Shown: positions 10,363-36,949 of the stretch, piece by piece | Layout: each line of letters opens with the position of its first letter | Position numbering within the stretch: position 1 is the first letter of the stretch | NCBI GenBank assembly: GCA_903847485.1 | Contig: CAINDV010001020.1 | Location: 1-42,108, forward strand | Reading direction: 5' to 3' | Source of the DNA: an uncultured Verrucomicrobiota bacterium | Lineage (GTDB): Bacteria > Verrucomicrobiota > Verrucomicrobiia > Limisphaerales > JAJXZI01 | Length of the DNA: 42,108 bases | The notes under the pieces: generated by a model | Database searches by the model: none | The model's input: the letters and a program-made list of their open reading frames with translations, nothing else | What the model was told of the DNA's origin: nothing | Program-made: the position numbers and the translations under genes

Positions 10363-13300
10363 TCACGGCGCGACGACGACCTTGCCCTTCCCATTAATCC
10401 ACTTTTCCGCAGCGGCGGTGTAGGTACCGGCGGGTTTCTTGACGTTGTTCACGCTGAGGGCCTTGACGGTCAACACACCGCTGTGGCCCTCGGCGCTATC
10501 GGTCTTGATAGTGGTGTTGCCTGCCATCACCAGCGCGGCCACGGTCTCGCTGCAGCCGTTGAGACTTAGGTAGGCCGCGCCGTTGTTTCCAGCGTTGATC
10601 AGCGTGATGGTGGCGGTGTCCTTGATCTGGTTGCTGTGAATCCAATGCAGGCAGTCGTTGAAACCTTGGCCGCCCACAACCACATCGCCGCTGATGGCAT
10701 CCACGCCGTCGGGCTTCTCCAACTGCACGCGCCCCTTGCGGGCGAGGAACTTGCCAGTGGTCGTGTTGGGATTGTCGCCGGCCAATCGTAACGGGGCGTC
10801 CTTGTAGCCGGTGTACGACGGGCCCATCAGCAGCACCACATCGCCCGTGCCAGAAATCGTTCCCAAGTAGCACAGCGGGTTGCCGTCGCCGCTGTCGAAG
10901 GTGATGGTGTGGCCGTTGCTAACCAGGTCAATGTCGCAGGTTCCCACACCGACCCAGAATTCGGTGTCGCCGGTCATATTGCCAATGTTACCCGAACCGA
11001 TCTGACCAGTGGGGTCACCGTAGCGTCCCTTGACGTTCACGCGCGGATCAATGGTCACGCTGCCGCTGCCCTCCAACCAAGGCTGCGGGGCCTTGTGGCT
11101 GCCGGTGGCGATCTTCTTGCCATAGACGATGAGTTGCTTTACGGCTAGGTGTCCGCCGCTGCCGGTGCGGATTTTGGCCTGGCCGTCAACCATTACCTTG
11201 GCCAGTGCGGCCTTGTGCCCCGCGAGGTCCAGAAAGCACGGCTGGGCCTTGCCATCCAGCGTGACAGTGGCGAAGGGCGCGATTTGTCCGTCGCCAGCCA
11301 ATATGACGGCATCGCCGGCGTTGGCGATGTCGCTGCCGCCCACAAATAAGTTGCCGGGGATGGCAATGACGCCCGCAGGCTTGTTGAGTTTCAGCACGCC
11401 GCGGGATAGAACGGTGTGGCCTTTGTAGGAACTGGTCGAGGGGCCAGTGATCTCCAGGGGCTGCCTAGAGGGGGCCTGTCCGCCCGCGGCAGCATCGAAT
11501 GTCACGGCACCGTTGCCCGTGATGAAGCCGCTGTACGAGGTGGGTTTGTCGCCTGGCGCACAGAAAGTCAGGCCAAACTCGCCCGTCATTACCGGGATGG
11601 CGCAGTCGCCGGTGGCCGGGCCGAAGGTCGTCGCCGCAGTCAGTACTGCGATGTTGTTTTCGCCGATAACCGTATTGGCATTGGTGATCACTCCGGCGGC
11701 GTTGACATACTTCACATTGCCCACCACTACGAAACCGCTGCCTACAATCCAGGTGTTAGCCGAGGTGTACACGCCCTTGGGCAAGCTCTTGCCGTCGATC
11801 GCCAGGGTGCCGACGGTCAGGATACCGCCAGCCTTCTGATCGTCGGTCACAATCTTGGTGTGCGGAGCCATCTTGAGGCTGGCGAAATTATCATTGCAGC
11901 CATTGAGGTTGAGGGTCGCTCCGCCCTTGGGCGAGTCGAGCAGTTCCACAACGGCCGCGTTGTTGAGCTGGTCACTGTTGGCCCAATAAAGGCAGTCGTT
12001 GTCGCCCTGGCCCCCAACGATGACTGTGCCGCCTACGGCGTCCACCCCCGCGTCCTTGGCGAGAGTCAACCGGCCGGACTTGACCAACCAGGTGCCCTGC
12101 ATCGTGTTAGGCTCCTTGCCGCCGAGAATCATCGGAGAGTTACGGAAGTTGCCGTCGGCCCCGCCCATGAAGACCTGCACCTTGCCGGTGCCAGAGATGG
12201 GACCGTTATAGCCCATCGCATTGCCGCCGCCGCTGTCGAAAGTGAGCGTAAATCCCTTGTTAATCACGGCATTCGGCCCGGCCGGGGGCGCCCACTGAAA
12301 GGCCGTATCACCTTTGAGCACCCCAATGTTGTCTTCGCCCAGAGTCTTGGCCGGTTCGGCAACAACGCCGGCAAGCTCGACCATCAGCCGGAGCTTGATT
12401 TCGCGGACAACCATCGGCTCGGCCTGTGGCAAACCGCACCACAGGCGCACGGCCTTGACATTGTTATCGCTTAGAACGGCCTGGGCGGTACCCTTGGCCA
12501 GCTTGGCAACGGCGACATACTTGGCTCCGTCAGCCGAGACCTGCAGTTCCGCGCCCTCCAGCAAGCCCTTGCCGTTGATGCCGGTTAGGACTTCGATGGC
12601 GTACACGAGCGCAGGCTTGGCGAGTTGGATGGTAAGATGATCGCCGGCCTGGGGGGCCGCGGCGGACTTGTAGAAAGTGGCGTCATTCCCGTCTAAGGCG
12701 AACACGGGCTGAAGCATGTCGCGTGTGCCGGCGGAGGCGGTGAAAGCGGCGTCCAGCCGGGCTTTGGGAGGCAGACCGATGAGCTTGCCAACGGCCGCGT
12801 CCTGTGCCTGGAAGCGCGCGGCGAAACCCTGTTCGGTCACGGTATTGTCGGGGCCCCAGGTGCGTTCCTGGCGGGCGGCGACGTTGCGGACCATGCCAGC
12901 TAACACTTCGACCGATTGCTCCCAAGCCACTAACGTGGCACCAATAACCGCGTCGCCCTTCCTAAGCGTGCTGCCGTTGCAGACATACATGCTCCACTGT
13001 TCCCAAGGAACGCCCAAGTTCCACGGACAGGTAATGGTGGCATAGCCCAGGGGAATGAGTTGGCTGGCTGTGTTATTGTTTCCGACCCACGTCATGACGA
13101 TGATGTCTTTGGCCGCCGTGTCGGCCAGGCCTTCCCACTTAATGGCCTTCTTGCCGCGCTTCTTGACCATCTCGTTGACGCGGGCGATGAAGTAGTTGGC
13201 CAGTTCGCCATCGTTCTTGAGGCCATGTTTATCCATGAAGGCCTGGTATCCGCTGTGAAGCGAGACCCGGCCCATAGACACTTCGTCGCTGCCAATGTGG

Positions 13301-19319: not shown

Positions 19320-19449
19320 GAGCCTGTTTGAAAAGTCGTCAGCGGTAGGGGAGGCTCCTGCCGAGCCTCTACGGCAGCCGCCGCGCGCTGGTTCCAAAAG
19401 GCTCGGCAAGAGCCTTGCCCTACCGCAGCAGGCATTCTCAAACAGGCTC
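19320..19449. mobile_element. Second MITE-like element of the same family, with an internal GTAG-REP doublet
   Basis: GAGCCTGTTTGAAAA ... TTCTCAAACAGGCTC with TTA/TAA flanks. Inner GTAGGGGAGGCTCCTGCCGAGCC...GGCTCGGCAAGAGCCTTGCCCTAC. Confidence 0.72.
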
Positions 19450-19522
19450 TAAGGGCCATTTAGAACCGACTCCTTTACGAACAAAAACCGGGGACGTGAT
19501 CTCGCGCAGGGCAGGCAGGCGT

Positions 19523-19803
19523 TCAACACGTCCGGGCAGGGCGGCGGGGCGGCAGGCGCTTGACGATGAGCTTGCTCTCCGGCGGGGCCGGGGCCAGAAG
19601 TTGCCAGAGACTTCCAACCCGTAGGCGTGGGCCAGCCACTCCAAGGTGGACAGACGCAACTCCCGATTCCGACCGGCCTCGACAGCTTGGTAATACTTGT
19701 AGGAAATGCCGGAACGCTCCGCGAAGGCTTCCGGCGTCAGCCCGTGAGCCGCGCGCAGTTCCCAGAGCCGGGCCAGGAGGTGCGTCAGAGTGAACTTGGC
19801 CAC
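19523..19803 (-). pseudogene. Frameshifted XRE-family HTH regulator, divergent from the R-M gene
   Basis: LRAAHGLTPEAFAERSGISYKYYQAVEAGR...LSTLEWLAHAYGLEV. The expected continuation WQLLAP is in another frame after GTCTCTGG, consistent with an extra TC near 19606. Confidence 0.7.
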
Positions 19804-19879
19804 TCACGCTGGTGTCGGCGCTGTCCGCCTCCAGGTCCGCCTTGCTTTTTCTGCCACCGCCGTGCCACGCTATGCCGCG

Positions 19880-22723
19880 ATGCCTCTCTCGTGGAATGAA
19901 ATCAAGCACCGCGCCATCGCCTTTTCCAACAAGTGGAAAGACGAGACCCGCGAGTCCGCCGAACGCCAGTCCTTTTGGAATGACTTCTTCAACGTCTTCG
20001 GCGTAGAACGCCGCTGCGTCGCCAGCTACGAGGAGCCGGTGAAGAAGCTCTCCGGTGACTGGGCTTACATTGATCTGTTCTGGCCCCGCACCCTGCTCGC
20101 CGAACACAAAGGCGCGGGCAAAGACCTCGGCAAAGCGCACGCCCAAGGCATGGAATACATCCGAGCCCTCGCCGACAGTGGGCGCGGCCACGAAGTCCCC
20201 CGCTACCTCATCGTCTCCGACTTCCAGCGGATTGCCATTCACGACCTGGAGCCGGGGCCAGACCCCGACGCGCCCCTCTTCCAGCGCCTGCCGCCTTCCT
20301 TCGAGTTTCCCCTGGCTGACTTCCATAAGCACATCCGCCACTTCGCCTTCATGGCGGGCTACCAACAGCACCGGCTTGATCCCGAAGATCCCGCCAACGA
20401 AGACGCCACCCGGCTTATGTGCGCCTTGCACGATGCCTTGGAGGCCGGCGAATACGGCACCGACACCACCGGCCACGCGGGCCATGAGTTAAAGCAATTC
20501 CTTGTCCGCCTGCTCTTCTGCCTCTTCGCCGAAGACAACGGCATCTTCCCCAGCCGCGCCTTACAGTTCTATCTCCAAGACCACACCGCCGCCGATGGCT
20601 CCGACCTTGGCCCGAAGCTCGGCCAACTCTTCGCCGTGCTCAACACCCCCGAAGACCGCCGCCAGAAGAATCTCGACCCGGAGTTACTCCAGTTCGCCTA
20701 CATCAATGGCGATCTCTACCGCGAGCGCCTGGCCCTTCCCGCCTTCACCACGGCCATGCGGGAGCAACTCCTCGCCTGCGCCGCCTTCGATTGGTCCCGT
20801 ATCTCTCCCGCCGTCTTCGGCAGTCTCTTTCAGGCGGTAATGGATAAGAAGGAACGCCGCCAGATCGGTGCCCACTACACCGCCGAGCGCAACATCCTCA
20901 AAGTCATCCGCTCCCTGTTCCTCGATGACCTCCGCGCCGAATTCACCCGCGCCAAAGCAGCCAAGATCGGCCAACGCGAGCGCCTTATCGCCCTCCAGAA
21001 AAAGATCGCCACCTTGCGCTTCCTTGATCCCGCTTGCGGCTGCGGCAACTTCTTGGTTATCACCTACCGTGAGTTACGCGCCTTGGAACTGGAAATCCTC
21101 CTTGCCCTCCACAGCGGCCAGCAAGAAATGACTCTCGACGAGGTCAACAAACTCTCACTCCTCGACGTGGATCAGATGTTCGGGATTGAGCTGGAGGAAT
21201 TCCCCGCCCGCATTGCCGAAGTCGCCCTCTGGCTTACCGACCACCAGGCGAACATGGCGCTCAGCGTAGCCTTCACACAGCTCTACCGTCGCATCCCGCT
21301 GCGCAAAAGCCCGCACATCCACGTCGCCAACGCCCTCCGCACCGACTGGCGCACCATCCTGCCGCCGACGGAGTGCAGCTATGTGCTCGGCAATCCGCCG
21401 TTCGTCGGGAAGCATTTGCTCAACGCCGATCAGCAAATGGATATGGATGCCGTGTGGGGAGAATTGAACGGCGCTGGCTTTCTCGACTACGTGACCGCGT
21501 GGTATCGCAAAGCCGCCGAATACATCCACGGAACTCGCATCGTAGTCGGCTTTGTGTCCACGAACTCCATCTCACAAGGCGAGCAGGTCGGCATTCTCTG
21601 GACGGAACTTTTCAACCGCTTCCGCATCAAGATCCACTTCGCACACCGGACTTTCGCGTGGGTGAGTGAAGCGCGCGGAAAAGCACACGTCCATGTCGTC
21701 GTCATCGGCTTTGGATGCTTCGATGTTCCGCAGAAGCGCATTTACGATTACGACACTGACCCAGAAACACCGACAATCTCTCCCGCCGCGAACATCAGCC
21801 CCTATCTCATCGAAGGCTCTGACTCCGCCTTGCCCATTCGGCGGAAACCCATCTGCAATGTTCCGCCAATCGTGAACGGGAACAAGCCAGCCGACGGCGG
21901 ATTTCTTATCGTAGAGCAAGAGGATCGTGCGGACTTCGTCCGAGATAACCCCGGCGTCGCGCCGTATCTCAAGCCTATGCTCAGTGCCGACCAATACCTC
22001 AATGGCGAGGAACGCTGGGTTCTATGGCTTGTTGGTGCTCCGCCGCAACTTGTTCGCGACAATCCCGGATTGCGCGCCCGCGTTGAAGGCGTTCGTGAGT
22101 TTCGTTTGAAGAGCCCGAAGGCTTCCACGAAGCGCATGGCGGACAAGCCAACGCTGTTCGACCAAATCCGTCAGCCGACGCGGCCTTACATTGTCATTCC
22201 GCGACACTCCTCAGAGAACCGGCGCTACATCCCGTTTGGATACTTCGGCCCGGAGACAATTATCAGCGACAGTTGCACCGCCGTTGCTGATGCCGAAATA
22301 TTCCACTTTGGCGTTTTGTCTTCAGGAATGCACATGGCTTGGATGAAGCAAGTCTGCGGAAGATTGGAGAGCCGATTCCGCTACTCCAACAAGATCGTTT
22401 ACAACAACTACCCCTGGCCCATAACGCCGACGGCGGTTCAGCGTATGGCGGTGGAGAAGGCCGCCCAGCGGGTGCTCGACGCCCGCGCCGCCTACCCCGC
22501 CGCCACGCTGGCCGACTTATACGACCCGCTGGCCATGCCGCCCGCCCTAGCTGCCGCCCACACCGCGCTGGATAAGGCGGTGGATAAGTGCTACCGCAGC
22601 GACCCTTTCCCCAGCGACCGCGCCCGGGTGGAGCACCTCTTCGCCCTGTACGAGCAACTCACCGCCCCGCTTGCCCCCACCGCCCGCCCCAAAACCCGGC
22701 GGCGCAAGAGCAACTCTCCCTGA
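19880..22723 (+). CDS. MmeI-like type IIL restriction-modification enzyme (endonuclease, N6-adenine methyltransferase and target-recognition domain)
   Basis: MPLSWNEIK...FWNDFF, IDLFW...AEHK (PD-ExK), GAHYT, LDPACGCGNF (motif I), GNPPF (motif IV), VSTNSISQGEQ, GRLESRFRYS and TLADLYDP. Confidence 0.95.
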   Translation: MPLSWNEIKHRAIAFSNKWKDETRESAERQSFWNDFFNVFGVERRCVASYEEPVKKLSGDWAYIDLFWPRTLLAEHKGAGKDLGKAHAQGMEYIRALADSGRGHEVPRYLIVSDFQRIAIHDLEPGPDPDAPLFQRLPPSFEFPLADFHKHIRHFAFMAGYQQHRLDPEDPANEDATRLMCALHDALEAGEYGTDTTGHAGHELKQFLVRLLFCLFAEDNGIFPSRALQFYLQDHTAADGSDLGPKLGQLFAVLNTPEDRRQKNLDPELLQFAYINGDLYRERLALPAFTTAMREQLLACAAFDWSRISPAVFGSLFQAVMDKKERRQIGAHYTAERNILKVIRSLFLDDLRAEFTRAKAAKIGQRERLIALQKKIATLRFLDPACGCGNFLVITYRELRALELEILLALHSGQQEMTLDEVNKLSLLDVDQMFGIELEEFPARIAEVALWLTDHQANMALSVAFTQLYRRIPLRKSPHIHVANALRTDWRTILPPTECSYVLGNPPFVGKHLLNADQQMDMDAVWGELNGAGFLDYVTAWYRKAAEYIHGTRIVVGFVSTNSISQGEQVGILWTELFNRFRIKIHFAHRTFAWVSEARGKAHVHVVVIGFGCFDVPQKRIYDYDTDPETPTISPAANISPYLIEGSDSALPIRRKPICNVPPIVNGNKPADGGFLIVEQEDRADFVRDNPGVAPYLKPMLSADQYLNGEERWVLWLVGAPPQLVRDNPGLRARVEGVREFRLKSPKASTKRMADKPTLFDQIRQPTRPYIVIPRHSSENRRYIPFGYFGPETIISDSCTAVADAEIFHFGVLSSGMHMAWMKQVCGRLESRFRYSNKIVYNNYPWPITPTAVQRMAVEKAAQRVLDARAAYPAATLADLYDPLAMPPALAAAHTALDKAVDKCYRSDPFPSDRARVEHLFALYEQLTAPLAPTARPKTRRRKSNSP

Positions 22724-22792
22724 GCCGAAGAGCGCCAAAAGAACAATTGCCTGGCAGCTAAAACCGTTTATGTTTAAGCAGTTACAACCTAT

Positions 22793-23026
22793 ATGAGCGA
22801 ACTCAAGCAAGTTGATTGGCGGAAGGATGCTAAATTGACCGACTTCGGCCCGGACGACGAAGAGCTTGCACAGACTCCACAAGATGTGATTGACGTTCTG
22901 GGGTTTGACCCGAAAGAGTTATTCAGTGAACCTCATCCCGCCGCCAGCACCAACGGGCAACGGTTCTATCGGGCACGGGCGGTGGAGTTACGGCAACCGG
23001 GAGCGACTGACCCCTTTACGGCGTAG
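22793..23026 (+). CDS. Small acidic hypothetical protein
   Basis: ATG ORF after an AT-rich spacer. The protein-like acidic core DDEELAQTPQDVIDVLGFDPKELF looks real; the C-terminal third may be read-through. Confidence 0.5.
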   Translation: MSELKQVDWRKDAKLTDFGPDDEELAQTPQDVIDVLGFDPKELFSEPHPAASTNGQRFYRARAVELRQPGATDPFTA

Positions 23027-23238
23027 TCCGCCCCCTTCGCGCTTATTGGCCGGGACGCCTACGCCGGGGGCCTCCACGGCCCCCCCAGTGCCGGGCCGGC
23101 GTGGAAGGGTTCGCGGCGCATGGGAAAGATTGTCTTGGCTGGCGTTTTCAACGATTATTGGAACTCTTCGGCGGCGGTGCCATAACAAATCTTGCAGGTT
23201 CGCGGAAATCGCCTACAAACCCCTTGCGGCACAAGCGC

Positions 23239-23577
23239 AAGCGAGAGCCGACCCCGCCGAAAGGCATTGGTGGCAACTAGGTGGTGGTGGTGCCGTTCCA
23301 TTTCGCAATGCGGGCATCGGACGCCTGCCGCAAGGCATTGGTGACCTGGTGATCTCGTTCCCAAACTTTTTGAGTTTTTGAGTTTCGGCTTCGCTCCGCC
23401 GAAAGGCATTGGCGACAACACCGGAGTCAAGCGCACATTCGTCTGGCCATAATAGTTCCCGCCCCACCGCCGAAAGGCATTGGTGACTTGATGGAACATA
23501 AAGGGGTCAGTTCTTGGTATTGATAAGTGAGGCGGAGCGTAGCGGGCACCGGCCCGCCGCCGAAAGGCATTGGTGAC
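23239..23577 (+). CRISPR. Orphan CRISPR-like mini-array: 5 repeats (~36 nt, conserved 3' core CCGCCGAAAGGCATTGGTGAC) and 4 spacers (35, 35, 35, 54 nt)
   Basis: AAGGCATTGG recurs at 23261, 23332, 23403, 23474 and 23564 (period 71, 71, 71, 90) with unique sequence between. GCC-GAAA-GGC hairpin on the + strand. No cas genes in the window. Confidence 0.78.
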
Positions 23578-23652
23578 ACAAAAATTGGTTTTGACTTGGT
23601 TTGACCAGGTTTAACTAAATGGCAGTGGTCCGACGGGCGAGGGGCTGGCGAC

Positions 23653-23825
23653 TCCTCACCCTGCCCTCTCCTCGACCGAGGAGGAGAGGGTGGAGCGGCC
23701 ACGGATGGCGCGGGTGGCGCGGATGGCGGGCGGGGTTTGCAGCCGTAGCGGCGTCTCGGCAGAGCGCCGGATTCTTGGCCCGAGCAAGGGAAGTTGGCGG
23801 CGGTCTGCCGACGCGCCGCTACGCT
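23653..23825. repeat. REP cluster (CCCTCTCC...GGAGAGGG hairpin, 9-mer repeats, GTAG doublet)
   Basis: CCCTCTCCTC-GACC-GAGGAGGAGAGGG hairpin, and CGTAGCGGCGTCTCGGCAGA...TCTGCCGACGCGCCGCTACG inverted pair. Confidence 0.7.
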
Positions 23826-23924
23826 GGCAGGGGCGGGAAAAGCCGCCGGAATGGCGGTGGATGGGTTGGTTTGGGCGATTTGGGGCGTTTGGCGGTGGAA
23901 ATCGCGCAAGTTGTTGCAAATGAG

Positions 23925-24227
23925 GCATCTAGGCAGAAACACAAGGCTTCTAGGCAGCGGTACAAGGTTTCTAGGCTGCCAAATAAGCCTTCACGGCACG
24001 CCAACAGGACTTCACGGCTGGCGAACATGGTTTCCAGGCTGCGAAACAGCGTTCCACGATTGCCGGACATGGCTTCACGGAACCGGGACAGCATTCCACG
24101 GCTGCCGGATGGCGCTTCAAGGTTACGCCACGGGATTCCCAGGCAGCGGAACGCGGCTTCACGGTTGCGCCACGGGCCTTCACGGCTGAGAAACAGATTT
24201 CCAAGGCTGGTGGATCGCGCTTCGCGC
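23925..24227. repeat. Degenerate 21-bp tandem repeat, about 14 units
   Basis: Units such as GCTTCTAGGCAGCGGTACAAG, GCTTCACGGTTGCGCCACGGG and CCTTCACGGCTGAGAAACAGA follow at an exact 21-nt period. Confidence 0.9.
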
Positions 24228-24636
24228 TTTGGCGTGCTCTCCTCGCTGGGCACGAAGATCGTCCGATTCGAATCGGTCGCCGCGTTGTGGAACACCGCCC
24301 CCTCGGCCCGAAAGTTCACCATCGAGAAGTTCCTGGCCGCCCCCGGCGTGCTGGTGCTGGGTAATGATCCGGTGTTGCGCGACAGCATCTGGCCCATCAA
24401 CGCCCTGCTCCTCGAAGCGCTGACCCAAGAGATTCTGCGCCGGCGATTCTTTGTAGGAGCCGACGTAAGTAGGCTCTGATCGCTGGGAAGTTTGAGCCTC
24501 CTCACGTCGGCTCCTACAGGGTCGGATTGGTTTGTCCTGGATGAATTCCCCGCCATGGAGCGGGTGGATTGCATTCATGACCTGCTGCGGCGCGGTCGCT
24601 CCAAGGGCACCTCGGTGCTGCTGAGGATGCAGGGAG
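24228..24636 (+). pseudogene. Internal fragment of a TraD/TrwB-like type IV coupling ATPase, split by a REP doublet
   Basis: GVLSSLGTKI...VLVLGND...PINALLL...EIL, then after the palindrome WFVLDEFPAMERVDCIHDLLRRGRSKGTSVLLRMQ (Walker B/GRSKG pattern) following an in-frame stop. Confidence 0.7.
24452..24518. repeat. GTAG-type REP doublet (REPIN)
   Basis: TGTAGGAGCCGACGTAAGTAGGCTC and GAGCCTCCTCACGTCGGCTCCTACA. Confidence 0.9.
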
Positions 24637-24812
24637 GCATCCACTTCATTGTTGGCAACCCGCGCCGCAGTCCCGAAGCGGTCAATGAGGAGCAGGGTAT
24701 TGGCTGGCTCGTTGATTAGAACATTCGCTGCGGAAGCGGCGCGCGCGAACCATGCAATCGCTGCCGCGAAAACGGCTTGCGGCCACGGGGGATCGGCCGT
24801 CCGAACTCTCGG

Positions 24813-28329: not shown

Positions 28330-30912
28330 TCACGAGCGTGGAGCAGCCGTCCCGCTGGCCTCATTCGTCGGTGAAGCCGGCTCCTTGGCGTCGCTCCGGG
28401 GAATCACTTGGACGGGGATCGGCTTATCAGCCGTGAGACGCATGTCGCGCTGGGGGAAGGGGATGGCGATGCCGTTTTCGGCAAACGCGCCGGCAATCAT
28501 GTGGCGCAGGTCGCTGGCGATCTGCGCGGCGTTGTGCTTCACGACATCCACCCAGTAACGTAACTCGAACGTCAGGGCGCTGTCGCCGAACTCCATGAAG
28601 AGCATTTGCGGCTTCGGCTCCTTATTCACCAAGCCGTGACGTTCGGCCACCTCGCCGAGCAGTTGCACCACGCGGCGCGTATCGGAGCCATAAGCTACGC
28701 CGACAGTGACCGTGAACCGCACGGTGCGGTTAGAGTAGGTCCAGTTAGTCAGGTTGTTCTCCAGTAAGGCGCTGTTGGGTATTAGTGTCTCGGTGCCATC
28801 CCAGCGCTGGATCACGCTCGAACGGAGGCCAATCCCAGTGACTGTGCCGCGCTGGCCAACGACATCCAACACGTCCCCGACCCGGAACGGGCGCTCGAAT
28901 AGGATGATAATGCCACTGATGAAGTTCTTGAGTAGGTTCTGGGTGCCGAACCCCACGCCGATGGCCAGGGCGCCGCCGGCAAAGGCGAAGACGGTCAGCG
29001 GAATCTTAACCGAGACTAGGCTGAACGCGATCAAGCAGAGTAGCAGCACCACCCGCACCCAGCGGCGGATCAGGCTCGCTTGGTTCGGCTCAATCTTAAG
29101 CCGCTTTACCGCCAGCGGCTCGACCAGGCGCGCGACCAGTCCAGTAAGCCAATAGCCCACGACGAGAATGAGCACGGCCAGGGTTATCTTGCCCACGGTG
29201 ACGGGGCGTTTGCCGTAGATGGACTGGCCGTCCACGATGATCGTGTCCTCGGCCACGAACAGTTCAAAACGCCACAGCTTGGAGACGAAGGTGGAAGTCT
29301 CGGCGAATAGATCCTTCACCCGCCCGGTGAAGGGCAGCGCCTGACGGTCAAAGTCGAGTGCCTCCCGCCAGCGCGAGACTACTTGCTCACGCTTCTCCAG
29401 GTTTTGCAGCGCGCGCTGGTACAAAGCCTCCCGCTGCTGGTAGGTCTCCAACCGTTCCCGCGTCAAGGCCGGGTCCGCCGCGGCGTCGCCCTGGTTTTGC
29501 AGGCGATTCTGCTGTTCGGTGACCTGGCTGGCCGCGAGCTCAATCTGCTGCCGGTAGTACGGTTTGGCCGCCTGGATAAGTCCGCTCACGCGGGTTAGTC
29601 GCTGGTAGGCCCGTTGTAACTCGGCGAGATCGCGGCTGCCGAACACGGCCAGCCGCATCTGCCACATCTGGAGCTCGCCGCCCAGACTCTCGAAGAGTTG
29701 TCGTAACACGGTCAACCGCTGGATACTGGTCTGCGCTTGGAGACCCCGCACCTCCACCACTTCCTGGAGGTGAAGCAGGACAGCCGCATTAGTAGTCCCG
29801 GCGAACTGCTCTTGCAGGGCGTGGCGCAGGTGTTCCCGGGCCTCAGTCAAGGCCCGCTGGCACGCCTCGATATTGGTGTCCGCTGCCTGAACCTCTTGGT
29901 CAAGTCGGCGTTGTTCTCTGGCTAAGTTGTCCAGGACTTTGTCGAGGTGCGCCTGAGTAAAGGTAACCTGCTGGGCGGCCACAGCCAGTTGTCGCTTGGT
30001 GGCGGTCAAGCGCTGACTAACCTCAACCATCTCTTCGGTGGCGATCTGGCGCTTCGTTTCTAAGGACGCGAGCGAGGCAGCCGCCGTGCGCTGCCGCGCT
30101 TGCTCCAGTTCCCGCTGCCAGGCCAGACGTGCGACGAGGGTGGGATCTTTGGTCCCTTCCGATTGCTCGGCGAAGCGGCGGAGCTTTTCGTCGGACTCCT
30201 TCAGGGCCGCTTGCGCGTCGGCCAGGAACTCTTCGATCACGGTGCGCGTGATCTCGGCGGCTCTGACTTTGGCATTGAGGGATTGGAGGGCGTTCCGTAA
30301 GTCGTCCACTAATAAGACCGAATACGGCGGCGGCTCCGCGAAACCGGTCCAGGAGTTGACGGTGCTCGCAAGATCCTGCTGCCGCTGCCGGGCGGCCTCC
30401 AACGCGGCCAGGTCCTCCAGGTGAAGCTGGCAGGTGCGGACTAATCGTTGCAGCACGGAACGGTAATCTATGGCTTCCGGCACCGTGGCACCGGCCGGGA
30501 GGTTGCTGGAAGTGTTCTGGGCCGCCTGGGCACGGCTCAAGTCAGCCTGGGCTTCCGCGAGTTTGGCCCGCAGGCTGGCGGCTAGTTCACCCACTCCTAA
30601 GCTGACGCCGTTGGTGGCCAGGCGCGGCGTTACGTCGCCCGCCAGCAATCCGCCAGCACTAAGCCGGGCCGATTGCGCCACTGCGTTGCTGGCCAAAACC
30701 AGACAGCAGAGGAGGACGATGAAAAACCCGAAATCCGAAATCCGAAATCCGAAATCCGAAATGGCTTCCTGCCGTTGGTCGAAAGCTGCTCTTTCTGGAA
30801 GGCGACTTAGACAAAGTGATTCGGATTTCGGATTTCGGATTTCCTTCGGATTTCGGATTTCGGATTTCGGATTTTCCCCCTCTCCCCCGCCATTGTAAAT
30901 TCCGGTTCTCAT
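28330..30912 (-). CDS. MscS/MscK-family mechanosensitive channel with a long periplasmic coiled coil
   Basis: GALAIGVGFGTQNLLKNFISGIIILFERPFRVGD, IPNS, NWT, VGVAYGSD, FGDSAL and IPFPQRD motifs. Confidence 0.93.
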   Translation of the reverse strand: MRTGIYNGGGEGENPKSEIRNPKEIRNPKSESLCLSRLPERAAFDQRQEAISDFGFRISDFGFFIVLLCCLVLASNAVAQSARLSAGGLLAGDVTPRLATNGVSLGVGELAASLRAKLAEAQADLSRAQAAQNTSSNLPAGATVPEAIDYRSVLQRLVRTCQLHLEDLAALEAARQRQQDLASTVNSWTGFAEPPPYSVLLVDDLRNALQSLNAKVRAAEITRTVIEEFLADAQAALKESDEKLRRFAEQSEGTKDPTLVARLAWQRELEQARQRTAAASLASLETKRQIATEEMVEVSQRLTATKRQLAVAAQQVTFTQAHLDKVLDNLAREQRRLDQEVQAADTNIEACQRALTEAREHLRHALQEQFAGTTNAAVLLHLQEVVEVRGLQAQTSIQRLTVLRQLFESLGGELQMWQMRLAVFGSRDLAELQRAYQRLTRVSGLIQAAKPYYRQQIELAASQVTEQQNRLQNQGDAAADPALTRERLETYQQREALYQRALQNLEKREQVVSRWREALDFDRQALPFTGRVKDLFAETSTFVSKLWRFELFVAEDTIIVDGQSIYGKRPVTVGKITLAVLILVVGYWLTGLVARLVEPLAVKRLKIEPNQASLIRRWVRVVLLLCLIAFSLVSVKIPLTVFAFAGGALAIGVGFGTQNLLKNFISGIIILFERPFRVGDVLDVVGQRGTVTGIGLRSSVIQRWDGTETLIPNSALLENNLTNWTYSNRTVRFTVTVGVAYGSDTRRVVQLLGEVAERHGLVNKEPKPQMLFMEFGDSALTFELRYWVDVVKHNAAQIASDLRHMIAGAFAENGIAIPFPQRDMRLTADKPIPVQVIPRSDAKEPASPTNEASGTAAPRS
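30728..30875. repeat. Inverted arrays of the heptamer CCGAAAT/ATTTCGG inside the 5' end of the mscS ORF
   Basis: (CCGAAAT)x5 at 30728-30762 and ATTTCGG runs at ~30819-30875. Confidence 0.92.
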
Positions 30913-36828: not shown

Positions 36829-36949
36829 AAATCCGAAACCCGAAATCCGAAATCCGAAAGCAGCCCGAAGCCCGAAGTCCGAAGCGGTGCCGGGTGTCAG
36901 GGCGGGTTGGGTTTCGTACTTCGGATTTCGAATTTCGAATTTCGGATTT
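36829..36949. repeat. Inverted CCGAAAT/ATTTCG heptamer arrays
   Basis: AAATCCGAAACCCGAAATCCGAAATCCGAAAG ... TTCGGATTTCGAATTTCGAATTTCGGATTT. Confidence 0.85.

Follow-up and report, generated by a model that had tools for sequence, protein, structure and literature searches.

A CRISPR array with a constant 3′ repeat module and core-only units, probably a satellite of a type III-B (Cmr) system in an uncultured Verrucomicrobiota bacterium

What are five short repeats, evenly spaced and alike mainly in their 3′ parts, doing in a stretch of DNA that holds no cas gene? The locus lies on contig CAINDV010001020.1 of assembly GCA_903847485.1, from an uncultured Verrucomicrobiota bacterium; "the window" denotes the whole stretch analysed, 42,108 nt. 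Its genome (G000) is a metagenome bin of 9.0 Mb in 1379 contigs, 75.65% complete and 5.08% contaminated. An initial annotation, made from the letters of the window, described an orphan CRISPR-like mini-array that keeps mainly a hairpin and a 3′ handle. We find that region 23001-23613 is a genuine CRISPR locus with a leader and five repeat units. Most likely it is a satellite array of the genome's own type III-B (Cmr) system.

The array, its leader and its sister loci

The five units occupy 23239-23577 with spacings of 71, 71, 71 and 90 nt. A repeat search of the window recovers them as a 24-nt family, with copies starting at 23254, 23325, 23396, 23467 and 23557. The 20-nt core CGCCGAAAGGCATTGGTGAC is matched at 19, 18, 19, 20 and 20 of 20 positions from repeat 1 (R1) to repeat 5 (R5). 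The 16 nt on its 5′ side match the canonical 5′ half at 4, 13, 5, 7 and 15 of 16 positions, for a background mean of 4.7/16 among 200,000 random 16-mers of the genome. The alignment shows GCGGGCAYCGG to be common to R2 and R5. The core can fold a mini-hairpin, GCC-GAAA-GGC, followed by AUUGGUGAC; R5 folds into two hairpins, GCGGGC-ACCG-GCCCGC and a second one within the core.

All features of the locus are on the forward strand. The leader (23001-23253) is delimited by MAFFT alignment with two other contigs of the genome, from ~23001 with C233 and from ~23068 with the cas-adjacent leader of C136. Repeat 1 (CCGCCGAAAGGCATTGGTGGC, 23254-23274) consists of the core only, leader sequence replacing its 5′ half. 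Spacer 1 (23275-23309, 35 nt), whose only matches are low-complexity GGT runs and none of them informative, leads to repeat 2 (23310-23345), a full and slightly diverged 36-nt repeat. Inter-core stretch 2 (23346-23395, 50 nt) comprises spacer 2 and the place of the next 5′ half and contains a TTTTTGAG tandem; repeat 3 (23396-23416) is again core only. So is repeat 4 (23467-23487), which follows the 50 nt of inter-core stretch 3 (23417-23466). Spacer 4 (23488-23541) has 54 nt, which accounts for the 90-nt last spacing, and precedes repeat 5 (23542-23577), full and canonical. The 36 positions from 23578 to 23613 are either trailer or a last guide without a downstream repeat, as no more cores occur up to 23800. 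A sixth, degenerate repeat was ruled out: the best score upstream or downstream (to 23800) is 12/21, the background level.

Regularly spaced direct repeats with unrelated sequences between their cores are thus present, as in any CRISPR array. Open reading frames (ORFs) overlapping the array have no match in Pfam, and none spans it. Rfam assigns no family to the window at the gathering threshold; its CRISPR-DR models give no match at E<=1 on either array searched, and the only sub-threshold match at E<=1, to RNaseP-T on C136, is due to chance. In the 9.0-Mb genome the 21-mer of the repeat, with up to 3 mismatches, has 16 matches, compared with 5 for its reversed control. The arrays of the window, C136 and C233, spaced at 71-76 nt, account for 15 of them; the other is a single 3-mismatch site on C141.

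The C136 array has eight units and a partial ninth, at a period of 71-76 nt, and its full 36-nt repeat is GCGGGCATCGGCCCGC followed by CGCCGAAAGGCATTGGTGAC. On C233 there are two units, after which the end of a multi-copy element breaks into the array: the second spacer (L018, C233:1-102) runs into 27-29 nt that recur nearly unchanged on 7 other contigs (six of the seven copies are exact, five lie near a contig end). This is probably an insertion sequence (IS) inserted in the array, which would explain why the contig breaks there.

A leader is common to the three loci, over ~240 nt between the window and C233 and ~180 nt with C136. What flanks it differs: an MmeI-type restriction-modification gene in the window, SufB on C233 and cmr2 on C136. 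The window and C233 both have the leader joined straight to the first core: compared with C136 they lack 15 nt, and with these the 5′ half.

The C136 array adjoins a complete cmr2-3-4-5-6-1 operon, divergent from it. Its Cmr2/Cas10 is recognised by Cmr2_N (2.9e-29) and palm2 (1.1e-21), with the GGDD motif intact and no internal stop; the other products match Cmr3 (2e-31), a Cmr4-type RAMP (1e-26), Cmr5 (5.3e-11), Cmr6 (TIGR01898, 9.8e-31) and Cmr1 (TIGR01894, 1.7e-8). Between its cmr3 and cmr4 sit a DUF6036 nucleotidyltransferase gene and two small ORFs of unknown function (L017:4890-6206), an insertion absent from the other 8 neighbourhoods compared. Because leader and repeat are shared with this cmr-adjacent array, we count the window array as a satellite of the III-B system.

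G000 holds other CRISPR systems as well: a type I-E locus on C158 with an I-E-type array on C595, an I-U/I-G-like locus with a Cas4-Cas1 fusion on C696 with arrays on C696 and C560, and a type II (Cas9) locus on C420. The type I-E, I-U/I-G-like and type II loci each carry repeats different from those of the window array.

The observations of the initial annotation have held up, its interpretation in part. The repeat search and core scores of 18-20 of 20 reproduce the five units, their spacing and the near-constant last ~21 nt, as the alignment does the motif shared by R2 and R5; sister arrays, leader and cmr adjacency bear out the CRISPR identity. The neighbourhood is also as described, with an MmeI-type restriction-modification gene upstream and no cas genes within the 42-kb window. 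"Orphan" is apt locally and wrong for the genome, which has the C136 and C233 arrays and a full Cmr operon. The resemblance to type I repeats led astray, the family going with cmr genes and the type I loci of G000 having other repeats.

A repeat family linked to cmr genes

Of a set of 61 genomes, made up of G000 with 60 relatives, 5 contain the core pattern (up to 2 mismatches). Two relatives of the same order have arrays of 184 and 113 cores and Cmr2 orthologues of 61% and 41% identity; the 3′ 20 nt of their repeats are shared and the 5′ halves differ, GTCGGAACCCCACAAAC and GGGGCGAACGCCCCTCA. The other two core-positive relatives have single matches outside arrays. The repeat family co-occurs with cmr genes on C136 and in genomes G017 and G025, the last of which has array, cas2, cas1, CARF/HEPN genes and cmr1-6 all on one contig.

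A scan with the exact pattern, one genome per species, returned at least 127 stretches, and most of the titles shown are those of Verrucomicrobiota metagenome-assembled genomes (MAGs). Among the matches listed are 67 loci with >=5 units, altogether 1609 units, in which 48 distinct 5′-half consensus sequences precede one constant core. Cmr2_N was found in all 10 further large-array genomes tested, several times on the contig of the array. Over nine neighbourhoods, cmr2, 3, 6 and 1 are conserved in all, clusters of cmr4 in 7 and of cmr5 in 5; the other conserved genes are an NE0113-family CARF protein (6 genomes), a cas1-like gene (5) and cas2 (4). The repeat family is linked to type III-B Cmr and is widespread among genomes mostly titled Verrucomicrobiota. 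In one record titled as a Verrucomicrobiaceae MAG (L132), a single array interleaves the 5′ halves GGGCCGAATGGCCTCAC and GTGCCGCCTAGGCACTC on the same core, which suggests recombination between arrays via the common core.

Which enzyme processes these repeats? PF01881 has no match in G000, and PF10040 matches only a fusion of Cas6, reverse transcriptase (RT) and Cas1 on the 3.2-kb contig C228 (L025:3-3179). Its 1059-codon frame contains Cas6 at residues 231-334, the RT at 442-642 and Cas1 at 663-940. The true start is probably residue 98, since the first ~100 codons match a repeated element. The RT is of the group II intron type, and C228 has no assembled cognate array.

Of 300 other genomes of the order, 6 have homologues of this Cas6 domain, each time within fusions of ~900-1100 residues. 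An array lies next to them in five of the 7 regions fetched, in every case with repeats of a different family, mostly GTCACAAC..., the other strand of which mostly ends in ...GTTGTGAC. The core is absent from all 7 regions, and the repeat family of the Cas6 fusions has no assembled array in G000.

The 12 genomes with large core-family arrays contain no Cas6 of the PF10040 or PF01881 families, and in the neighbourhoods compared there is no conserved Cas6-sized gene of no known family beside the cmr genes. A 235-amino-acid ORF next to cmr2 in G025 was rejected as a Cas6 candidate, being a duplicate of the Cmr2 N-terminus. NCBIfam has no match in 16 of the 19 ORFs scanned, including every unknown neighbouring ORF. 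Cas6 processing of the hairpin, as first proposed for the window array, is thus no more than a candidate, with no Pfam Cas6 in the 12 large-array genomes and a fusion in G000 whose homologues pair with a different repeat.

Repeat asymmetry, core-only units and spacer sources

The 5′ halves of the 15 units in G000 are bimodal: eight score 10-16 of 16, and seven score 4-7, the background. In the eight units with a recognisable 5′ half, mismatches number 21/128 in that half versus 5/160 in the core (Fisher p 1e-4); all 15 cores pooled have 10 mismatches in 300 positions. The asymmetry is a graded constraint on which discrete core-only units are superimposed. The initial annotation had read it as selection rather than random decay. 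The asymmetry itself is real; the 5′ parts turn out to be bimodal, and at least that of R4 comes from the source gene of a spacer.

Core-only units are three of the five in the window, and two of the seven in the genome are the leader-fused first repeats. In the others, spacer-source sequence occupies the place of the 5′ half: a single gene fragment fills nearly all of the 50-53 nt from one core to the next, and units are still 71-73 nt long. In canonical units (C136 spacers 3 and 6), source homology ends where the canonical spacer does, to within 3 nt. Core-only units are very rare in healthy arrays elsewhere: array stretches from G017 and G025 contain none (0/30, 0/87 and 0/20, plus two decayed trailer repeats among 54). 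Among the 1609 listed units 15 were flagged; ten are artefacts of N-masking, a second repeat variant or an indel, and among the ~5 left are an internal unit of L148 and the final repeat of L171, with normal spacing.

The 5′-half place of repeat 4 is the clearest case. Positions 23444-23468 agree at 23/25 nt with two sites of a C434 gene encoding RCC1 repeats (PF13540 RCC1_2, E 2.5e-53). A profile of 72 RCC1-like units, the window contig left out, matches 23433-23467 (E 4.5e-7) and ends at the start of core 4, so at least these positions are the antisense of an RCC1-like gene. The motif encoded by the source is WG-N-YGQTNV, and stretch 3 is antisense to 4/4 RCC1 ORFs examined. These matches speak against simple neutral decay as the origin of the sequence in the 5′-half place of repeat 4, a reading that we reject. 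The first 16 nt of stretch 3 agree with RCC1 units at 11/16 after a 6-nt shift (a loop shorter by 2 codons), a score that the null reached in 9/300 cases. A codon-degenerate pattern run against metagenomes for the source gene gave one match, by chance, in a ribosomal-protein region; with this source not found, there is no direct way to distinguish a protospacer of 35 nt from one of 50 nt.

The C136 array contains a second case. Its two core-only stretches, 11134-11185 and 11206-11258, are ~80% alike (86% over the first 37 nt) and are the antisense of an FGE-sulfatase motif, GYGLYDM-G-VW, in 4/4 ORFs. A dozen FGE genes of the genome, four of them confirmed by PF03781, show this homology over inter-core positions 7-52, up to the core, and simple neutral decay of C136 repeats 5 and 6 is rejected on that account. 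Spacer 6 of C136 is antisense to a DDE transposase over 28-30 nt with 1-2 mismatches, and spacer 3 to a DruA-like ORF.

All spacers of traceable origin are therefore antisense to coding strands, the orientation needed by an RNA-targeting type III guide. The trend is biased, since a source is recognisable only if the assembly contains paralogues of it, and no exact full-length self-target exists in the assembly.

Spacer 4 holds, at 23494-23547, a copy of a dispersed ~50-nt element, TAAAGGGGTCAGTTCTTG.TATTG..AACTGAGGCGGAGCG, of which a profile search lists 15 copies genome-wide, C352 having 5. The element has an internal TCAGTT/AACTGA inverted repeat and is often preceded by extra copies of TAAAGGGGTCA. 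Its copies are intergenic, just upstream of ordinary genes and in both orientations; a role as promoter or operator motif is possible. The start of the element also recurs, inverted, in the CRISPR leader at 23006-23018.

How might core-only units arise? In the window (R2-R5) and on C136 (R4-R7) the order is full, core-only, core-only, full. One candidate is that a long prespacer of ~50 nt was inserted and the core alone duplicated, which fits this order and makes the constant unit length a coincidence. Another candidate is equal-length replacement of a spacer end and the adjoining 5′ half, for example by one-sided conversion from the source gene; it explains the constant length and needs a donor absent from the assembly. 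Segment replacement by aberrant integration is a third candidate. Integration in a shifted register, duplicating the core and the next 16 nt, was rejected for the window, where the identical post-core 16-mers it predicts are absent; C233 gives the sole hint of it, an agreement at 9 of the 11 nt that follow its two cores, confounded by the IS-like end. It is speculation that the non-cognate Cas6-RT-Cas1 acts on these arrays, which would fit the absence of cognate cas1/cas2 from the assembly.

A bolder proposal is that the 3′ 20-nt module is the sole part of the repeat that is needed. Guides would then be installed by duplicating or keeping the module only, through half-site or out-of-register integration (possibly by the C228 Cas6-RT-Cas1) or one-sided conversion. 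We regard it as a long shot.

Guide supply, rival readings and significance

For the array as a satellite of the Cmr system, we propose the following route. Transcription would start in the conserved leader, and the precursor CRISPR RNA would be cleaved in every repeat, within the constant 20-nt module at its 3′ end. Each guide would then start with a module-derived 5′ tag and be loaded in trans into the Cmr complex, its 3′ end, including the 5′ half of the next repeat, being trimmed off as in other type III systems. Type III CRISPR RNAs (crRNAs) rely on a repeat-derived 5′ tag and are trimmed at the 3′ end. If only the 3′ module is needed for guides, this would explain why it is constant in 15 units and dozens of genomes, and why the 5′ half can vary or disappear. 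Supply of guides in trans, one of the roles first suggested for the array, is also the likeliest in our analysis, and the recipient is most likely Cmr.

Twelve sequencing runs contain part of the stretch, and the assembled contigs of four were compared with it. One contig from a metatranscriptome library is identical to 23123-23274, from the leader to the last base of repeat 1; such contigs show no RNA ends and may be DNA. Another RNA library, with DNA carry-over possible, has contigs of the C233-type leader-repeat-spacer and of C136 from spacer 2 to repeat 3, together with a canonical repeat flanked by a spacer absent from G000. Other spacers on the canonical repeat are present in the population (X11). 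Among DNA contigs, one from a second sample of the likely source study (X2) is identical to 23236-23848, and one from the sediment of another study (X4) equals 23135-23415 minus one 8-nt TTTTTGAG copy, with the gap at 23367. By eye, a promoter-like pair, TTGCAG-16 nt-TACAAA, lies near 23191-23218; the sigma-70 scan does not call it.

Several observations weigh against a working satellite of the Cmr system. Cognate cas1/cas2 were not found in the 75.65%-complete assembly, and assigning C136, C233 and C228 to the cell of the window rests on binning and the common leader. Repeat 1 is without a 5′ half. A hairpin of >=4 bp folds in the 5′ half of 29 of 49 repeat variants, so this half may matter for processing, as in Synechocystis III-Bv, and core-only units might be cut poorly. 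The evidence for RNA consists of assembled metatranscriptome contigs, which can contain DNA, and scans for promoters and terminators called none on the forward strand. The window array shows no spacer turnover, being identical in X2 and differing by one 8-nt indel in X4. The comparison with virus and plasmid sequences that the initial annotation had called for gave nothing: 23239-23620 has no match in phage and plasmid collections by distant blastn.

Some of this is what a relic would look like, a formerly normal array, now unused, with cores alike through recent decay or gene conversion among the three loci and core-only units as scars. That picture is suited by the small number of units (five), the lack of turnover between samples, the fusion of the leader to repeat 1, the 7 of 15 units in the genome that are aberrant, the IS-like element in the C233 array and cognate adaptation genes not found in the assembly. 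The 21/128 versus 5/160 mismatches and the intact cores beside replaced 5′ halves are hard to obtain without selection on the core. The leader is kept over 180-240 nt in three loci with unrelated flanks, and the Cmr operon is intact, with no internal stops and its GGDD motif present. The terminal partial repeat of C136 has decayed the opposite way, its 5′ half kept and its core lost, so there is no general mutational bias against 5′ halves. A relic is therefore unlikely in our judgement. The array could also be live and serve the cell rather than its defence, if its guides are kept for pairing with host mRNAs (RCC1-repeat, FGE-sulfatase, transposase) that they tune or silence. Every traceable spacer does match a host gene family, antisense and with imperfect identity (RCC1 at 19 nt exact and 23/25, transposase at 28-30 nt with 1-2 mismatches), and the array is stable across samples. 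Detection bias could produce the same pattern, the true sources being mobile-element copies of such genes; with no exact full-length self-target in the assembly and no link to a regulated phenotype, we think a regulatory or self-directed array very improbable.

That the units are not CRISPR at all, and represent a REP-like dispersed repeat, a tandem protein-coding repeat or chance, has in its favour only their small number and degenerate 5′ parts. A scattered REP without fixed spacing would hardly place 15 of 16 genomic matches in three regular arrays, for 5 control matches, and one of these arrays adjoins cas genes. Related arrays exist in the same genome (C136 and C233), hundreds of units in related genomes, and no ORF spans the array, those overlapping it being without Pfam match. 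This explanation deserves next to no credence.

Elsewhere in the window, the complete MmeI-family type IIL restriction-modification gene upstream of the leader (19441-22723) has all five MmeI Pfam domains, and its start is overlapped by a small helix-turn-helix (Cro/C1-type) ORF of the opposite strand. Positions 3-629 hold a fragment of a PLD-type (NgoFVII-like) nuclease. The array is part of a ~2-kb stretch without family-assignable genes (22724-24812), which also contains a 21-nt tandem repeat (23923-23976, x2.6) and a 42-nt one (24093-24188, x2.3). An inverted repeat at 23744-23823, with 26-nt arms that are 88% complementary and 28 nt between them, resembles a palindromic element of the REP kind; the region of its left arm (23744-23776) is very high-copy in metagenomes, with a summed contig depth of 86-99 versus ~2-16 for most nearby bins, and many flanks. 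Runs of 7-nt tandem repeats occur in opposite orientations at the ends of an MscS-like and an AcrB-like gene, at 30724-30874 (AAATCCG x5.6, then TTCGGAT x8.3) and 36829-36949 (AAATCCG x4.4, AGCCCGA x3.4, TTTCGAA x5.4).

A satellite type III array is in itself of an ordinary, known kind; the modular repeat and the core-only units are unusual. Orphan arrays have been assigned to Cas6 enzymes in Anabaena (bioRxiv 10.1101/2020.04.14.041012), and crosstalk between type III and type I systems is known from Thermus thermophilus (PMC12102369). Like such satellite arrays, the window array has its own leader, lies far from cas genes, shares the repeat of the cas-adjacent array and presumably delivers guides in trans. 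Unlike them, it has three of five units (7/15 genome-wide) without a 5′ half and no Cas6 that can be assigned to it.

The closest parallel for processing is the III-Bv system CRISPR3 of Synechocystis sp. PCC 6803. There a Cas6-less Cmr uses crRNAs matured by RNase E with RNase J, and RNase E cleaves downstream of a hairpin located in the repeat's 5′ part, leaving 13-14 nt handles (PMC12464536). The core family resembles that system in having Cmr without a recognisable cas6 (0/12 genomes) and a repeat of ~36-37 nt, in which a frequent 5′ hairpin (29/49 variants) is followed by a 3′ part that would provide the handle. It departs from it in that the 3′ part has its own GNRA-type mini-hairpin, of a sequence conserved across many genomes, and in that cas1 and cas2 accompany several loci. 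We do not claim III-Bv membership for the core family.

Decay in CRISPR arrays usually sets in at the trailer, where it is typically the 3′ part of the final repeat that degenerates. Some repeats here are likewise off consensus, and the partial ninth repeat of C136 behaves classically. The aberrant units, unlike degenerate terminal repeats, are internal or leader-proximal, with the 3′ part kept perfectly and the 5′ part replaced by spacer-source sequence at constant unit length. Out-of-place integration by Cas1-Cas2, akin to the ectopic spacer acquisition of Streptococcus thermophilus (PMC7999890), is one candidate origin of core-only units. Ectopic integration events are not known to duplicate less than a whole repeat, and here just a 20-21 nt core flanks a ~50-nt insert. 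A literature search, non-exhaustive and not covering subscription literature, found no description of core-only units.

Standard CRISPR finders that demand identity of the whole repeat would split or miss such arrays. A constant 3′ module, free 5′ halves and a Cmr without recognisable Cas6 point to an uncharacterised route of crRNA maturation, comparable to the RNase E route of III-Bv, with which we do not claim identity. In core-only units the 5′ half is replaceable by spacer-source sequence at unchanged unit length, which bears on how the integrase measures the repeat and on what a minimal functional repeat is. Should the 3′ module prove to be the only part needed, these would be natural "minimal-repeat" CRISPR units and would point to a processing nuclease that reads a module conserved across many genomes.

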